Assembly (NCBI GenBank): GCA_964547425.1
Contig: CAZJNH010000004.1
Span: 7,226 to 71,225 of the forward strand
DNA from: an uncultured Candidatus Saccharibacteria bacterium
Lineage (GTDB): Bacteria > Patescibacteriota > Saccharimonadia > UBA4664 > CAZJNH01
Length of the DNA: 64,000 nucleotides
Reading direction: 5' to 3'
The stretch's first letter is position 1. Each line of letters begins with the position of its first letter. Of this stretch, positions 2,896 through 47,205 are shown piece after piece. The translations under genes and the position numbers were made by a program. Under the pieces are notes generated by a model. That model was not told the origin of the DNA. It searched no databases and saw only the letters and a program-made list of their open reading frames with translations.

Positions 2896-3405
2896 TTGCT
2901 TGAGCTGTTGATCGTTATCGTAATCATTGGAATTCTTGCAATTATCATTGTTCCCGGCCTCGCCAGCGGCCCAAAGCGCGCTCGCGACGCAAATCGTAAA
3001 TCTGACTTGCGCGGCCTCAAGAACTCCCTCGAAACTTTTTACAACGACAACAGCTCCTACCCGGTACAAACCACCACCGCCAGCACCACGTCCCTTACCG
3101 CCACCGCTTTACTCAGCTCTACTACTGGTGTTGTACCAAATTATCTGCCGGCTTTCGAGTGCGACCCGAGATCAAGCGTGAAAACCACCACCACCACCTC
3201 CACTCTTTGTGTCGACACGGTTGACGGCTCCAATACCCTGCGTTACCTCTATAAATCGGGTTCTTCAGGTTCTTCTTACCGCGTCTGCGCGACGCTTGAG
3301 AACGCTCAAGACGGAGACGATGGCAACACAACTACAAACGTGTCCGAGGGGTACTCCGTGGTCAGTGTGAACGGTACCGCTCCCGGCACCCTCTGCACTA
3401 CTTAG
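2896..3405 (+). CDS. pilA: type IV pilin paralog 2 (start codon anomalous)
   Basis: The product (…HAHG)FTLLELLIVIVIIGILAIIIVPGLASGPKRARDANRK… is collinear with paralog 1. An AGGAGG Shine-Dalgarno sits at 2845-2850. There is no in-frame ATG or GTG before the G|F cleavage site. The only in-frame candidates are CTG at 2860 or ATC at 2872, or the TTG at 2896 which would delete the leader. Confidence 0.7.
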   Translation: MLELLIVIVIIGILAIIIVPGLASGPKRARDANRKSDLRGLKNSLETFYNDNSSYPVQTTTASTTSLTATALLSSTTGVVPNYLPAFECDPRSSVKTTTTTSTLCVDTVDGSNTLRYLYKSGSSGSSYRVCATLENAQDGDDGNTTTNVSEGYSVVSVNGTAPGTLCTT

Positions 3406-18470: not shown

Positions 18471-18546
18471 TGGTGGGCCGTCCGGGGCTCGAACCCGGGA
18501 CACGAAGCTTAAAAGGCTCCTGCTCTACCAACTGAGCTAACGGCCC
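18471..18546 (-). tRNA. tRNA-Lys(UUU)
   Basis: GGGCCGTTAGCTCAGTTGGTAGAGCAGGAGCCTTTTAAGCTTCGTGTCCCGGGTTCGAGCCCCGGACGGCCCACCA folds as a cloverleaf with CCA encoded. Confidence 0.85.
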
Positions 18547-33226: not shown

Positions 33227-33301
33227 TGGTGGCTGTGGGTGGATTTGAACCACCGACCAACGGCTTATGAGTCCGCTGCTCTACCACTGAGCTACACAGC
33301 C
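33227..33301 (-). tRNA. tRNA-Met(CAU), elongator type
   Basis: GGCTGTGTAGCTCAGTGGTAGAGCAGCGGACTCATAAGCCGTTGGTCGGTGGTTCAAATCCACCCACAGCCACCA. It has U4-A69 as in tRNA-Met, with one A31·G39 mismatch in the anticodon stem. Confidence 0.75.
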
Positions 33302-33467
33302 GCACTGGCGGTCGGGTTGGATGGTGGCTCCGCCACCTCCCTGCGGTGCTCGGTAAGAACTAATCAATCTTACTTCTTACCTGCGCTCCTCGTCCACCGA
33401 ACCTGCGGTTCTTCATCCAACCAATCACTAAACAAGGCCCACATCCGGATTAACCGGCTGCGGGCCT

Positions 33468-33542
33468 TGGTAGCGGGGGTTGGATTCGAACCAACGACCT
33501 CCGGGTTATGAGCCCGACGAGCTGCCACTGCTCTACCCCGCG
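33468..33542 (-). tRNA. initiator tRNA-fMet(CAU)
   Basis: CGCGGGGTAGAGCAGTGGCAGCTCGTCGGGCTCATAACCCGGAGGTCGTTGGTTCGAATCCAACCCCCGCTACCA. It shows an unpaired 1:72 (C·U), A11:U24, and three G-C pairs closing the anticodon stem. It is near-identical to E. coli tRNA-fMet. Confidence 0.85.
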
Positions 33543-33587
33543 GCACAACATAGCAATATAGCACTTTATATCTGGAGGGTCAACGCG

Positions 33588-33968
33588 TCAGCCAAAGAGG
33601 AAGTGCCACCACTGTACCCAGTTAGCCGTTTTGGAGGTTTTTGTTTTAGCGGCCTCGGCTGGCGTTTGAGTGGCGGAGATTTTATCCCTCGGCAATATAA
33701 CTAGGGTTTCGCCGGGTTTTTGCAAGCCCAGTTTAGCCCTGGCAGCCTTTTCTTTATAGGCGTCGGTTTTGTAATACTCAATCTGATAGCCCAGCTCGGC
33801 GTTGTCTTCCTTTAGCTGGGAGACATCTCTTTGTAATTGCCCAATCTGCCCCTGAAGACTGGCGTTGTTGCGCACGGTCTGGACTAAAATGATTGCTAAG
33901 TAGATCGAAGATATTACTCCAGCTAAGCTAACAAACTTGTTGACCACGCTCTGATTTGGTTTCACCAC
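33588..33968 (-). CDS. septum formation initiator family protein (FtsB/DivIC-like)
   Basis: A single TM helix followed by a coiled coil (LQGQIGQLQRDVSQLKEDNAELGYQIEYYK). Confidence 0.6.
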   Translation of the reverse strand: MVKPNQSVVNKFVSLAGVISSIYLAIILVQTVRNNASLQGQIGQLQRDVSQLKEDNAELGYQIEYYKTDAYKEKAARAKLGLQKPGETLVILPRDKISATQTPAEAAKTKTSKTANWVQWWHFLFG

Positions 33969-34037
33969 TTAATTCTAACTTAAAACCATAAGCTTCTATA
34001 TTAAAGAAGTTGTTTGCTAAACTTAAGCCACCGCTGT

Positions 34038-34113
34038 GGGCCGGTAGCTCAGCGGTTAGAGCAGCGGGCTCATAACCTGTTGGTCGTAGGTTCGAATCCT
34101 ACCCGGCCCACCA
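34038..34113 (+). tRNA. tRNA-Ile2 (CAU to lysidine), or second tRNA-Met
   Basis: GGGCCGGTAGCTCAGCGGTTAGAGCAGCGGGCTCATAACCTGTTGGTCGTAGGTTCGAATCCTACCCGGCCCACCA. The C4-G69 and C5-G68 acceptor pairs are those preferred by TilS. Confidence 0.7.
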
Positions 34114-43632: not shown

Positions 43633-44994
43633 TCAGAACGACTCTGCAGGACCCTCGGGGTTTGAATACCAAAGATTTTCTCCTTTTGATTTTTGAGACA
43701 AAATTTTCCCAGCCTTCCTCAGTCTAAATAAGGTGTCTTTAACCATCCTGCCAGTCAATCTGAGTCCAGCTGGGGCTTCAACCGATTGCATAATCTCGTT
43801 GAACGATCGGGGCGAGCCTCCCAGTAACCCAAGTACCATAATATTTTGATCTTCTTGGGGGAAACGGTTGGCTTCGGGGGAAGCCACAGCAGCTTTGGCT
43901 ACTAGCTGCCTGACCATTTCGGGGTTGCTGATAATATCATGGGCAAGGGCTTTACCTTCAGCAAGGAAAGTCTCTTTTCGAGTCGAAAAGTTTTCCAGGA
44001 TGTTAAGTGCCTCTTGCAGGGTCTCCCTTGACTCTGGTTCAATACTGATATCTGATAACTCCTGCAGATTGTACGTAGGAATGGCTAATCCTTGGTCGCG
44101 AAATCCAGTTAGGATGTAGTTCACATTGCTCCGCAAGCTTTTTTGTTCACTGTACGTTGAGTTCTGTTCAATTACATCATTGACAATAGACTCGGTGGTT
44201 AGCTCAACTCCCTCCTGCTTTGCAAGCAAACTGTTAATACTATCCGCAACGGCTTTCGAAAGTCCTGGCTGCTCAAAGCGAGGTTCGTATTCGGTAATTG
44301 TTTCAGGAAATTCATAACTGGGTTTCAGTCCCTTTGCAGAGGTCGCATCTATTTGGATTAAGCCTACCTGCTCAAGTTGCTGTAGTTGATTTCTGACCGT
44401 ATTACGCGATCCCTGCTCAACCGAGCTATAAAGAGATGCCAGATTTATGGGTAATTCATTTGTTAGCAGCTCCCTTAGGATCTCGATACGGCGATCGGGG
44501 GATCTTTTGTCCGCAGTTTTCGAATGAGTAAGCCCAAAAACTTCTTTGAGACTTTCTTTATGCTCTGAGGAAAATTTAAGTAGGTGCCCAGCCAGCGGCA
44601 CACCAAGCTCCATACCTTTTTCAGTTACGGTGTATCTAGCTCCTTGACCTGTAATCTCCTCTTTCGCTACTAGACCTATGGGGGCAAACGAGTCCTTACA
44701 ATAATCGAACCCCAGGCTTATATTTCCTTTCCACACCAAGTCTTCACCTTGAGTGTTGCGAAAAGCTCGAGCTAGGTCGCTACGGCCAAAGTCCTTTCGA
44801 GGGTGTTCAGCCATGGCCAGGAAAATAATGGCCTTTGCCTCATGATTCCCAACGGCGGATACAAGCTGTCCAAGTTCCTGGTCACTAACACGCTCGGGTG
44901 TAGTTTCGATCTCTTCTTTTTCTAAGAGTTCAGCCGCGAGTTCGCGGTGGCTAAACTTGCTTTGCTCACCAGATTCGGATTCTTGTTCATTCAT
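43633..44994 (-). CDS. hypothetical protein with repeated winged-helix-like segments (low GC)
   Basis: Lower-GC codon usage. Several segments resemble the ends of HTH/winged-helix domains (…QLQQLEQVGLIQID). The start was set at MNEQ (44994) so that the upstream repeat lies outside the gene. Confidence 0.4.
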   Translation of the reverse strand: MNEQESESGEQSKFSHRELAAELLEKEEIETTPERVSDQELGQLVSAVGNHEAKAIIFLAMAEHPRKDFGRSDLARAFRNTQGEDLVWKGNISLGFDYCKDSFAPIGLVAKEEITGQGARYTVTEKGMELGVPLAGHLLKFSSEHKESLKEVFGLTHSKTADKRSPDRRIEILRELLTNELPINLASLYSSVEQGSRNTVRNQLQQLEQVGLIQIDATSAKGLKPSYEFPETITEYEPRFEQPGLSKAVADSINSLLAKQEGVELTTESIVNDVIEQNSTYSEQKSLRSNVNYILTGFRDQGLAIPTYNLQELSDISIEPESRETLQEALNILENFSTRKETFLAEGKALAHDIISNPEMVRQLVAKAAVASPEANRFPQEDQNIMVLGLLGGSPRSFNEIMQSVEAPAGLRLTGRMVKDTLFRLRKAGKILSQKSKGENLWYSNPEGPAESF

Positions 44995-45047
44995 TGTCCA
45001 TATGATAGCAAAAAACGACCTGCCAGGTCGTTTAAGCATAGGGGCTA

Positions 45048-45065
45048 TGTCTCCGGGGGCGAGAT
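45048..45065. repeat. 17/18-nt direct repeat of the tRNA-Asn 3' end (att-like remnant)
   Basis: tgtctccgggggcgagat here matches tggctccgggggcgagat at 45181-45198. Confidence 0.5.
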
Positions 45066-45180
45066 AGCGGCTTCGCCTTCTCCGCTTCGCTACGACGAAC
45101 TCCCTGCTTCGCAGCCGAGTTCTCATCTCGGCCTGAAATCAAAAAGGTGTGGCAATGACGCGAGGTCATTTCCACACCTT

Positions 45181-45484
45181 TGGCTCCGGGGGCGAGATTC
45201 GAACTCGCGACCAATTGATTACACCGATCCCACTGTTTCCAATGAGGGTGGACTATATCATCATCCGCCGGTGGGCGGAGCGGGGCGCTTCCTCTTACGA
45301 GTACTCTCTTGCGAGATAGTCTCTGAACCTTACCCTCGCCTTTAAGAAAAAGACGAGGGGCTTGGCTGCTGATTACCTTATTCTAGGAACTTAGGTTTCC
45401 AGCAATTCACCCCGTTTTTCAAACCCGATTACTCGGGCAAGCTGCCTTTTGACAGTCAACTGCTCTACCGCTGAGCTACCCCGG
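45181..45484 (-). tRNA. tRNA-Asn(GUU) interrupted by a group I intron after nt 36
   Basis: Joining exons 45451-45484 and 45181-45221 gives TCCGGGGTAGCTCAGCGGTAGAGCAGTTGACTGT|TAATCAATTGGTCGCGAGTTCGAATCTCGCCCCCGGAGCCA. This has U1-A72, G73 and the loop CUGUUAA, as in E. coli tRNA-Asn. A rho-independent terminator lies at 45140-45180 on the minus strand. Confidence 0.75.
45222..45450 (-). ncRNA. group I self-splicing intron (229 nt)
   Basis: The 5' exon ends in U and the intron ends in G. P1 pairs the exon CUGU with intron GCAG. The P (AAUUGCUGGAAAC), Q (AAUCAGCAGCC), R (GUUCAGAGACUA) and S (GAUAUAGUCC) elements are all present, and GACUA pairs with UAGUC to form P7. Confidence 0.75.
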
Positions 45485-45514
45485 AACGCCGAGTTATTTT
45501 ATCTTTTTTACGGC

Positions 45515-45826
45515 TTACGGTAAAGAATTGCTTACTCCAGCCTCAACTTCACGATGGCAGTTCGCGCAGAGAAGGATGCACTTATCAAGCTCCTTGAGTA
45601 TCTTTTCCCAGGATCGGGTATAACCTTTGGCGCCAATCCCAAAGTTTTTCTCCTTCGGATATAGATGATGTATTTCCAAGGCACCTTGATAATAGCCATA
45701 CCCGCAAGCCAGACATTTACCCCCCAACTCAGCGACAGCCATAGCTTTTATTTTCTTACGACGTTTACTGACGGCTTGAACCATATACTTGCGGCGGTCA
45801 GCGTAAGTTCGAGTCTCTTTTCTCAC
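45515..45826 (-). CDS. HNH endonuclease (free-standing, possible homing endonuclease)
   Basis: CLACG…LEIHHLYPKE…N…LLCANCH is a canonical HNH zinc-finger nuclease motif. AT-rich. It ends 30 nt upstream of the tRNA-Asn 5' end on the same strand. Confidence 0.7.
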   Translation of the reverse strand: MRKETRTYADRRKYMVQAVSKRRKKIKAMAVAELGGKCLACGYGYYQGALEIHHLYPKEKNFGIGAKGYTRSWEKILKELDKCILLCANCHREVEAGVSNSLP

Positions 45827-45865
45827 ATACTAATTATATCGAGCAAACGAACGAAAAGCGAACGA

Positions 45866-46969
45866 TTATTCTAGCGATTTTTTGGCTTGGGGTAAAGGAG
45901 TTGCGGCTTGCTCGACGGCGCGATAATAGATTTCTTCGTAGCCGTCGGTCATCCGTTGGGCGTTAAAGTTCGTTAGTGCGTGTTCCCGGCAGGCTTTGCG
46001 GTTAATCCGATGGATTTTGCCGATCGCTTCCGCCATGCCTTCCTCGTCGTGGACCACGTAGCCGGTTTTGCCATCAACAATAATCTCCGGAATCGATCCC
46101 ATGTTAAACGCCACGACTGGAGAGCCGCAGGCCATCCCTTCGATCAGAGTAAGCCCAAAGGGTTCGGGCCAAGTGACCGGATGAAGCATACACAAAGCGC
46201 CGCTCATCAGCTTGGTTTTTTCGGCGTCATCGACCTCTCCGACCCATTTAACCTGGCCGTTAAGGTAAGGCTTCACATAGGTGTGGAAGTACTCCATATC
46301 GGCCGGGACGTCTTCGTTTAGCTTGGCGGCGATAATTAACGGGATTCCTAAGGCTTGGGCAACCGCGATGGCGTGGTGGGTGCCTTTTTCCATACAGATA
46401 CGCCCGACAAACAGTAAATAGTTGCCGGCTTTTTGGCCAAACGGATAATGCTGCATCGACAGGCCGTTATAAACCGTACCAGCGGTTTTGATCCGGGTGT
46501 GATGGGCCGTCTGGTTGTGTGAAATCGATACCAGATGAGGGCGGTTGAGTTCCTCGTATACCCGGTCGGTTCCGGCCTCGATCGGCCCGTGCAAGGTCAT
46601 CACCACCGGAGTTTCGGCGATGTTTGCCACCGGCAAACTTAGCATTATGTGGGCATGGTCATGGATAATGTCGAACTCTTTCTGATGTTTGTAGACCAAC
46701 CCAATATTTAACGCTGTGTAGGAGTTAACGCCGTAAAGTTCTTTGACTTTGTCTAGGCGCAAGGCGTGGGGATGAACATACACCAGTTTGGCGGAAGTAA
46801 GGGAGTCGCCGCTGGCAAATAAGGTAACTTCGTGGCCGCGGCGGACCAACTCTTCAGTTAACTCATAAACGACGCGTTCGGTCCCCCCATATTTCTGGGG
46901 CGGAACGCGTTCGACCAACGGGGCGACCATAGCGATTTTTAGTCGACGAGGCTGGGATTCTTTAGGCAT
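45866..46969 (-). CDS. glycosyltransferase family 4 (GT-B)
   Basis: N-terminus KIAMVAPLVERVPPQKYGGTERVV. The C-terminal region resembles the nucleotide-binding domain of retaining GT4 enzymes. Confidence 0.75.
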   Translation of the reverse strand: MPKESQPRRLKIAMVAPLVERVPPQKYGGTERVVYELTEELVRRGHEVTLFASGDSLTSAKLVYVHPHALRLDKVKELYGVNSYTALNIGLVYKHQKEFDIIHDHAHIMLSLPVANIAETPVVMTLHGPIEAGTDRVYEELNRPHLVSISHNQTAHHTRIKTAGTVYNGLSMQHYPFGQKAGNYLLFVGRICMEKGTHHAIAVAQALGIPLIIAAKLNEDVPADMEYFHTYVKPYLNGQVKWVGEVDDAEKTKLMSGALCMLHPVTWPEPFGLTLIEGMACGSPVVAFNMGSIPEIIVDGKTGYVVHDEEGMAEAIGKIHRINRKACREHALTNFNAQRMTDGYEEIYYRAVEQAATPLPQAKKSLE

Positions 46970-47205
46970 ATCAGCGCATTATAACCGTCCAAGCATAGCT
47001 ATCAACTGTGCATTTTTCCAACTCCTAGCCATCTCACCACTCTCATCCAAGTCGTCGCTGCGGATCAGTATTCTACTCCGTGGCTAAGTGCTTAGCAGAC
47101 TGGATTAGCCGCAGGACATCGACAGCCTGCACTTTATCGAGATATTTCAGATCAAAATCATAGTACCGCAGAAATCTGCGGTACCTGGCTCTGATTTTGC
47201 GCCGG

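Follow-up and report, generated by a model that had tools for sequence, protein, structure and literature searches.

A 64,000-nucleotide (nt) stretch of contig CAZJNH010000004.1, from an uncultured Candidatus Saccharibacteria bacterium and referred to here as the window, carries on its minus strand two tRNA-Asn segments separated by an insert, with a small gene for a predicted HNH endonuclease just upstream. This locus raises the question of whether a tRNA gene is split there by a group I intron, where exactly such an intron would be removed, and how the nuclease gene is related to it. We consider it very probable that a Patescibacteria-like (Saccharimonadia-like) bacterium here has a tRNA-Asn(GUU) gene that is split between U35 and U36 by a 230-nt group I intron of IA type (with the hairpins P7.1 and P7.2) lacking any open reading frame (ORF). 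The HNH gene, which the first-pass annotation of this DNA had overlooked although it lies immediately upstream, most likely belongs to a homing-endonuclease-like family tied to tRNA-Asn genes.

The split tRNA-Asn gene and its intron

The gene consists of three segments:

45452-45485, minus strand: tRNA-Asn(GUU) 5' exon, nt 1-35 with position 17 absent, ending C32 U33 G34 U35 (ARAGORN on the joined exons)
45222-45451, minus strand: group I intron, starting CAAAAGGCAGC and ending GGAUCGGUG, with the terminal guanosine (omegaG) at 45222 (RF00028, minimum free energy (MFE) fold, covariation, and tRNA register)
45181-45221, minus strand: tRNA-Asn 3' exon, U36 to A76, with G73 and an encoded CCA

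When 45485..45452 (34 nt) was joined to 45221..45181 (41 nt), ARAGORN called a 75-nt tRNA-Asn(GUU) in which all four arms are perfectly paired and which has U1-A72, G73, an encoded CCA, and the loop CUGUUAA. A scan with the Rfam model RF00028 (Intron_gpI), which the first-pass annotation had named as a check, matched 45229-45468 (minus strand) well above the gathering score (100.5 bits versus 50, E = 7e-25) and aligned the whole model (positions 1-253 of 253); this is the only Rfam group I match in the 64-kb window. The intron itself (45451..45222, 230 nt) has no ORF, for an endonuclease or otherwise. The group I intron in tRNA-Asn(GUU) proposed by the first-pass annotation is therefore borne out by the Rfam score and by the ARAGORN call on the joined exons, as well as by the MFE fold and covariation described below. 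Most of its details hold as well, namely U1-A72, G73, and the CUGUUAA loop in the joined tRNA, the final U of the 5' exon and final G of the intron, a P1 of CUGU with GCAG at intron nt 7-10, the P, Q, R, and S strings (intron nt 45-57, 78-88, 124-135, and 193-202), and a GACUA/UAGUC P7 that is identical in 81 of 81 related intron cores. Its two minus-strand segments do yield a tRNA-Asn, but they are spaced by 230 nt rather than 229, and the 5' end is at 45485 rather than 45484.

The spliced product closely resembles known tRNA-Asn molecules. Exon 1 is identical at 33 of 34 positions to exon 1 of the experimentally spliced gene of GCA_016700035.1, and the spliced tRNA is 91% identical to that validated tRNA-Asn and 87-89% identical to the uninterrupted tRNA-Asn genes of two related loci (L097 and L035). 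These and the other loci numbered with L carry relatives of the upstream HNH gene. Such relatives were found in at least 543 genomes of a GTDB species scan, of which the best 80 loci were kept, and in at least 564 viral contigs (IMG/VR; 44-64% identity), of which the best 80 were likewise kept (L098-L177); in each scan, the 80 loci are those most similar to the query and not a random sample.

It should be noted that standard tRNA finders fail at this locus. In default mode, ARAGORN passed over the locus, its calls in the 64 kb being limited to a tRNA-Lys and three tRNA-Met(CAU) genes, while in intron mode it read unspliced 45100-45600 (minus strand) as a tRNA-Asp(GTC) that has a long extra arm and a 212-nt 'intron', a spurious call which we rejected as an annotation artefact of the kind that a 2026 study of these introns warns about (Nakagawa et al., mSystems 2026; PMC13011429). 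A genome may seem to have no tRNA-Asn merely because such finders miss a 35/36 group I intron, and the missed gene affects the completeness scores of Patescibacteria genomes.

Unconstrained RNAfold (MFE -84.3 kcal/mol) folded the intron into P2, a 7-bp P3 enclosing P4-P5-P6, P7.1 and P7.2, P8, and P9. A hand-drawn version of the fold was mapped to 81 cores, of which 75 came from fetched loci and 6 from Table S3 of the 2026 paper, aligned by plain MAFFT with no fitting to any structure; all percentages of pairing refer to this alignment. The elements are as follows:

45442-45445, minus strand: internal guide sequence (IGS) GCAG, the P1 3' strand, intron nt 7-10, which pairs with C32-U35
45424-45437, minus strand: P2 hairpin CCCGA-GUAA-UCGGG, 97% paired with 4-6 pair types per position
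45408-45414, minus strand: P3 5' strand CGGGGUG, partner 45281-45287, 90% paired with CG/UA and GC/AU/UA exchanges (MFE fold)
45328-45404, minus strand: P4-P5-P6/P6a domain, with P4 UGCUGG/UCAGCA and P6a CCCUCGUC/GGCGAGGG
45317-45321, minus strand: P7 5' strand GACUA at the end of the R element, invariant in 81/81
45292-45316, minus strand: P7.1 (UCUC-GCAA-GAGA) and P7.2 (CUC-GUAA-GAG), 95% and 75% paired (MFE fold)
45281-45287, minus strand: P3 3' strand CGCCCCG (MFE fold, 81-core alignment)
45264-45279, minus strand: P8 hairpin UCCGCC-CACC-GGCGGA, 63% paired (MFE fold)
45251-45255, minus strand: P7 3' strand UAGUC, the S element (Rfam alignment, 81 cores)
45231-45244, minus strand: P9 hairpin CAUUG-GAAA-CAGUG, 74% paired over four P9 pairs and ~79% with the loop-closing pair (Rfam alignment, MFE fold)

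Overall, 86.4% of the positions were paired, versus 35-49% when the partners were slid by 1-3 columns, while 200 column shuffles reached a mean of 66.7% and a maximum of 68.2%. Many of the changes in the core helices are double-sided. P4 is 99% paired with full compensatory swaps (UA/AU, CG/GC, GC/CG/AU, and GC/UA), and P5, P6, and P6a are 81%, 91%, and 79% paired, respectively. The core helices P3 to P8 that define a group I intron were found in the MFE fold and in the pairing of the 81 cores, with the invariance of P7 speaking neither for nor against its pairing. Extra hairpins P7.1 and P7.2 between P7 and the P3 3' strand are a hallmark of subgroup IA. By these hairpins in the MFE fold and alignment, rather than by subgroup-specific covariance models, the intron is IA-like, which agrees with the assignment made in PMC13011429. 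A few points weigh against the intron as described: P8 and P9 pair less well than the other helices on the plain alignment, probably due to misalignment of variable-length stems by MAFFT; P1 comprises just 4 bp; and no convincing P10 was found in the intron.

The first-pass annotation had also suggested that tRNA-Asn might be a new host gene or lineage, but tRNA-Asn introns at 35/36 are already on record. Williams (2020; bioRxiv 10.1101/2020.01.27.920355) expanded the intron-split bacterial tRNA classes to 21, and the 35/36 tRNA-Asn site is catalogued as tFind class 'Asn.4Ug', as cited in PMC13011429. The latter study examined 95 complete Patescibacteria genomes and reported 35/36 group I introns in 15 tRNA-Asn(GUU) and 3 tRNA-Asp(GUC) genes. 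In vitro self-splicing was demonstrated for the tRNA-Asn of GCA_016700035.1, precisely at 35/36, and for the tRNA-Asp of GCA_001029755.1, with an omegaG-to-C mutant as negative control (PMC13011429). Among 4,934 complete genomes, 28 introns were found at 35/36, 19 of them in Patescibacteria, and the tRNA introns of Patescibacteria, almost all of which are IA, include none of type IC, whereas 81% of bacterial tRNA introns are IC (PMC13011429). The window core is 61-68% identical to six published introns (67.8% to that of GCA_016700035.1), and in a neighbour-joining tree, built like all trees here from short alignments, it groups with the GTDB-locus cores and one of the six published introns, that of GCA_016699245 (Paceibacteria). 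The cores of the published Saccharimonadia genomes, GCA_016700035.1 among them, fall instead with those of L048, L055, and L062, three loci that have an HNH gene upstream of tRNA-Asn. Intron strings from the window do not occur in the accessible parts of the supplementary tables of PMC13011429, so this is another family member and not one of the listed genomes. The intron is a newly found member of a family that has been published and validated by experiment, and it adds little beyond the 2026 paper. 

From the mechanism of the family, we infer that this particular copy splices as well. A precursor would be transcribed from a promoter-like site 11 nt upstream of the tRNA, with a terminator-like hairpin after CCA. 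C32-U35 would pair with the guide GCAG (intron nt 7-10) to form P1, so that a U35.G wobble marks the 5' splice site, and exogenous guanosine would attack after U35. The terminal G (45222) would then enter the G-binding site in P7, and the free 3'-OH of U35 would attack after this G, ligating U35 to U36 in a 75-nt tRNA-Asn. If this is the sole tRNA-Asn gene of its genome, as in the published cases, splicing would be essential. The locus might instead be a decaying relic whose intron no longer splices, with a second, uninterrupted tRNA-Asn elsewhere doing the work. The visible genome amounts to 64 kb, which leaves room for an intact tRNA-Asn elsewhere and counts against our reading; related genomes do have uninterrupted tRNA-Asn genes, and a 15-nt downstream copy of the tRNA 3' end is a sign of past rearrangement at the locus. 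On the other hand, none of the core helices is damaged, no other scanned locus scores as high with Rfam (52-88 bits, versus 100.5 here), and the tRNA arms are all perfectly paired, which makes a relic improbable.

As for the exact position of the intron, the first-pass annotation had placed it between nt 36 and 37, one base off from the actual 35/36 site. No 36/37 reading is possible, because the base after U35 is a C and the 5' exon thus has no U36. When the boundaries were slid from -4 to +2, a U before the 5' splice site together with a terminal intron G occurred only at shift 0 (Asn GUU, 35/36) and at shift -2 (Thr UGU, 33/34), and a 4-bp CUGU/GCAG P1 exists only in the Asn register, with a U35.G7 wobble at the 5' splice site and the terminal G at 45222. 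Excision two bases earlier would produce a mature tRNA-Thr(UGU) rather than tRNA-Asn(GUU), and ARAGORN indeed calls the -2 product tRNA-Thr(tgt), a call that both ARAGORN and tFind make for many homologues (PMC13011429). However, the sequenced splicing product of one close homologue showed that excision is at 35/36 (PMC13011429), and the tRNA body (U1-A72, G73, and the identity to uninterrupted tRNA-Asn(GUU) genes) is that of tRNA-Asn. Likewise, all 79 of the 79 reconstructed loci are tRNA-Asn(GUU) with the site at 35/36, omegaG, a 5' exon ending in CTGT, and GCAG in the expected place. This conserved guide pairs with the CUGU ending at U35, but there is no conserved G for U33: the base 5' of GCAG is C or G among relatives, and because it varies, the U33.G alternative is not conserved. 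A tRNA-Thr product is therefore highly improbable.

The HNH gene and its arrangements around tRNA-Asn

Two further features lie upstream of the tRNA gene:

45515-45826, minus strand: free-standing gene of the predicted HNH endonuclease (103 aa), which starts with GTG and stops 29 nt short of the tRNA 5' end
45833-45838, minus strand: TATAAT box 6 nt before the HNH start codon, a consensus match only

The 103-aa protein has more than 1,237 homologues at 60-73% identity. A CxxC...HH...CxxCH motif is invariant in 23 sequences, and the window protein keeps all of the invariant Cys, His, and Asn positions. Its AlphaFold2 model (mean predicted local distance difference test score, pLDDT, 80.5) consists of a long N-terminal helix followed by strand-strand-helix, and the best match in a PDB profile search was a group II maturase En domain (E = 4e-4). 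Some of the HNH relatives carry a precomputed match to the Pfam family HNH (PF01844). Two results weigh against the assignment: the window protein itself scores 18.9 bits for PF01844, below the 21.4 gathering cutoff, and a Foldseek search of the model against the PDB had no significant match, the top matches being HNH domains with a best E = 0.1.

The genomic positions of these relatives are more telling. The 80 GTDB loci are arranged as follows:

58 of 80 loci: HNH inside the intron (P1 loop)
11 of 80 loci: HNH upstream of the intron-split gene, the arrangement of the window
2 of 80 loci: HNH downstream of the intron-split gene
3 of 80 loci: HNH 10-30 nt upstream of an uninterrupted tRNA-Asn
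6 of 80 loci: HNH locus cut by contig ends

Among the first five homologue groups fetched, four (L003-L012) have the tRNA-Asn 5' exon 28-47 nt upstream of the HNH start and a group I core that overlaps the 3' end of the ORF, so that the ORF occupies the intron's P1 loop; the fifth group (L002) resembles the window in having the ORF upstream of the tRNA gene. An uninterrupted tRNA-Asn also follows the closest HNH relative of the window (P0001, 73%; L097) and the abundant P0056 class. In phages, 76 of the 80 kept viral loci lie in tRNA arrays, and tRNA-Asn(GUU) is the nearest tRNA in 43 of 65 distinct loci, even though Asn accounts for just 58 of the 393 tRNAs there. The HNH stop at the viral loci often overlaps the tRNA 5' end by ~9 nt, and in five of them (L101, L105, L110, L150, and L156) a tRNA-Asn lies on both sides of HNH. 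BLAST of 44000-47000 against phage genomes returned only short matches, to the conserved intron core and the HNH gene. The HNH family is thus linked to tRNA-Asn family-wide, and its distribution suggests phages as a reservoir for the nuclease. Given this linkage, an unrelated McrA-like restriction nuclease that neighbours the tRNA gene by chance is very hard to credit: JGI does label relatives '5-methylcytosine-specific restriction endonuclease McrA' and the PDB profile search has a weak McrA match (E = 0.046), but the gene lies in or directly beside tRNA-Asn(GUU) wherever a contig end does not cut the 80 GTDB loci, 58 of them have it within the intron, and in the phage arrays tRNA-Asn is nearest in 43/65 loci despite being just 15% of the tRNAs.

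The HNH protein would most likely be a homing-endonuclease-like protein that promotes, or once promoted, DNA-level spread of the locus; both its nuclease activity and its target are predictions. The simplest form of such a model, in which the intron confers immunity, is weakened by the occurrence of HNH beside an uninterrupted tRNA-Asn in L025, L035, L043, L093-96, and L097, since this coexistence indicates that the intron is not needed for self-tolerance. Tolerance could alternatively come from an I-HmuI-like nickase or from target divergence.

The different arrangements also retain traces of one another. In ~60 of the 64 intron-encoded forms, the ORF reads x-Q-L through the guide GCAGCUU, and a hydrophobic residue plus a Pro is retained at the corresponding place in 8 of the 15 free-standing forms that adjoin an intron. 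The tail of the window protein, VSNSLP, has this hydrophobic-Pro pair shifted by one residue, while the ORF stops sooner, for example with IIKL* or IISV*, where the neighbouring tRNA is uninterrupted. In L025, a relic 5' exon followed by intron-type sequence lies upstream of HNH (p = 0.007) and a relic 3' exon downstream, which is direct evidence of at least one switch from an intron-encoded to a free-standing form. The anticodon stem of the relic is unlike that of the resident tRNA, which suggests a foreign donor. This region (L025:1900-2500) is a mosaic of the relic 5' exon (GGTAGAGCAATTCGTTGT followed by GGAACA...), HNH, an intact intron-less tRNA-Asn, and a partial second tRNA copy that spans the anticodon stem through the T arm and contains an insertion of 34 nt. 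No relic 5' exon was found upstream of the window's HNH (p = 0.73), and L025 is the only locus with one. We also considered a duplication, with the sequence after free-standing HNH cores as a decayed copy of IGS-P2-P3, and rejected it, as local alignment against the locus's own intron start gave p >= 0.1 at 11 of 11 loci; a protein-level remnant (L, V, I, or F followed by P) alone remains.

Neither the intron-core tree nor the HNH tree groups the free-standing loci together; they are scattered over each. The nearest intron cores to that of the window are from intron-encoded loci (L017 and L065, 77%), while its nearest HNH is from an intron-less locus. Congruent histories of HNH and intron core found no support, as no correlation was seen between the two sets of identities to the window (Spearman -0.14, p = 0.24), a weak test given that the HNH identities span just 59-73%. 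Because the states are intermixed on both trees, we conclude that the architecture appears to have been switched several times. A possible reading, which we put forward only tentatively, is that the window captures one stage of a series by which a homing endonuclease and a group I intron merge into a single mobile element, or separate again. The mobile unit would then be a tRNA-Asn-specific HNH cassette made up of a TATAAT box and a ~104-aa ORF, common in phage tRNA arrays and present in Patescibacteria in four states: beside an uninterrupted tRNA-Asn, upstream of a split gene as in the window, downstream of it, and inside the P1 loop. In terms of what is new, the HNH family adds more than the intron, since its members occur in at least 543 species genomes of GTDB and on at least 564 viral contigs, nearly always at tRNA-Asn and with several alternative placements there. 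It thereby offers a large comparative data set on how endonuclease genes and group I introns come together.

Transcription signals and genomic context

A TATAAT box 6-12 nt before the start codon is also present in intron-encoded and free-standing relatives of the HNH gene, and the window and L097 share a near-identical TATAATTAGTAT directly before GTG. Further features flank the tRNA gene:

45496-45524, minus strand: promoter-like TTTACC-17-TAAAAT ending 11 nt before the tRNA 5' end, likewise a consensus match only
45141-45180, minus strand: terminator-like long hairpin and T-run (TTTTT) directly after CCA, read by eye from the sequence
45051-45065, minus strand: 15-nt perfect direct repeat (ATCTCGCCCCCGGAG) of tRNA 45198-45184, a score reached by 0 of 300 shuffles

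The -35 hexamer of the promoter-like site falls in the last HNH codons, and the terminator-like hairpin was missed by the terminator scanner due to its loop-length limit. The 15-nt repeat lies ~120 nt downstream of the gene, past this hairpin, and was probably left behind by recombination or by an integrating element. Of 77 related loci examined (65 with >=300 nt downstream), 8 have similar repeats, at 115-190 nt, and we therefore rejected the idea that a second copy of the tRNA 3' end generally follows these genes. A 497-aa ORF (43633-45126, minus strand) downstream of the tRNA has weak HTH_20/HTH_11 matches (E ~0.008); as the start given in the ORF list falls on the 15-nt repeat, translation probably begins further in, near MNEQ. 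Immediately downstream of tRNA-Asn, L002 (3244-4809) and L009 (3029-4633) each have a gene for a large serine recombinase that the otherwise identical L008 and L010 lack, by which tRNA-Asn also looks like an integration site for mobile elements.

The window also contains dnaK, lepA, and ftsH, and lexA adjoins the locus, which indicates a cellular chromosome. Named LepA relatives (63-69% identity) are mostly labelled 'Candidatus Saccharimonadia', 'Saccharibacteria', or 'Patescibacteria group', with two labelled otherwise, although taxonomy taken from the titles of metagenome-assembled genomes is unreliable. Elsewhere in the window, three tRNA genes with CAU anticodons lie within 900 bp (33227-34113; two on the minus and one on the plus strand), presumably initiator Met, elongator Met, and Ile2, and a tRNA-Lys(UUU) lies at 18471-18546. 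In L035, an AdoCbl-II riboswitch match (3092-3169; 37.8 bits, just above the gathering score) ~700 nt downstream of tRNA-Asn is unrelated to the intron.

Relation to known introns and homing systems

Classical group I introns of bacterial tRNA genes are located at 34/35 in cyanobacterial tRNA-Leu(UAA), at 33/34 in tRNA-fMet, and at 36/37 in Azoarcus tRNA-Ile and Agrobacterium tRNA-Arg. The window intron differs from these in its 35/36 site and in being IA-like rather than IC3. By comparison, it shares with the Patescibacteria tRNA-Asn 35/36 introns the host gene, the site, U(-1)/omegaG, and an IA-type core with P7.1/P7.2, and standard tRNA finders fail at it just as they do at the published introns, here with an Asp(GTC) miscall. 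The published study treats nuclease genes only inside introns >500 bp, with four HNH cases in 95 genomes, makes no mention of free-standing endonuclease genes, and concludes that horizontal transfer is limited (PMC13011429). Unlike in these intron-encoded cases, the homologous HNH gene of the window lies outside the tRNA gene, a nuclease/intron arrangement that is apparently undescribed.

The arrangement is reminiscent of collaborative (trans) homing, as described for F-CphI and the psbA intron of cyanophage S-PM2 and for mobE and the nrdB intron of T4 (PMC3984707; PMC2790892), in that a free-standing endonuclease gene adjoins a gene with an ORF-less intron. Moreover, the same intron harbours relatives of the window nuclease, as the collaborative homing model predicts for the end state. 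However, those cases concern protein-coding genes of phages, whereas the window presents a tRNA gene on a bacterial chromosome. This nuclease family also coexists with uninterrupted tRNA-Asn genes, which speaks indirectly against an obligatory protection by the intron. Should the nuclease prove active on tRNA-Asn DNA, the locus would represent collaborative homing in a tRNA gene of a bacterial chromosome. A second parallel is T4 SegB, a free-standing GIY-YIG homing endonuclease encoded in a phage tRNA gene cluster (PMC2330249). As with SegB, a small nuclease gene is found between tRNA genes, with the phage relatives of the window HNH residing in tRNA arrays, but the window nuclease is from a different family and is linked specifically to tRNA-Asn and, in Patescibacteria, to its intron.

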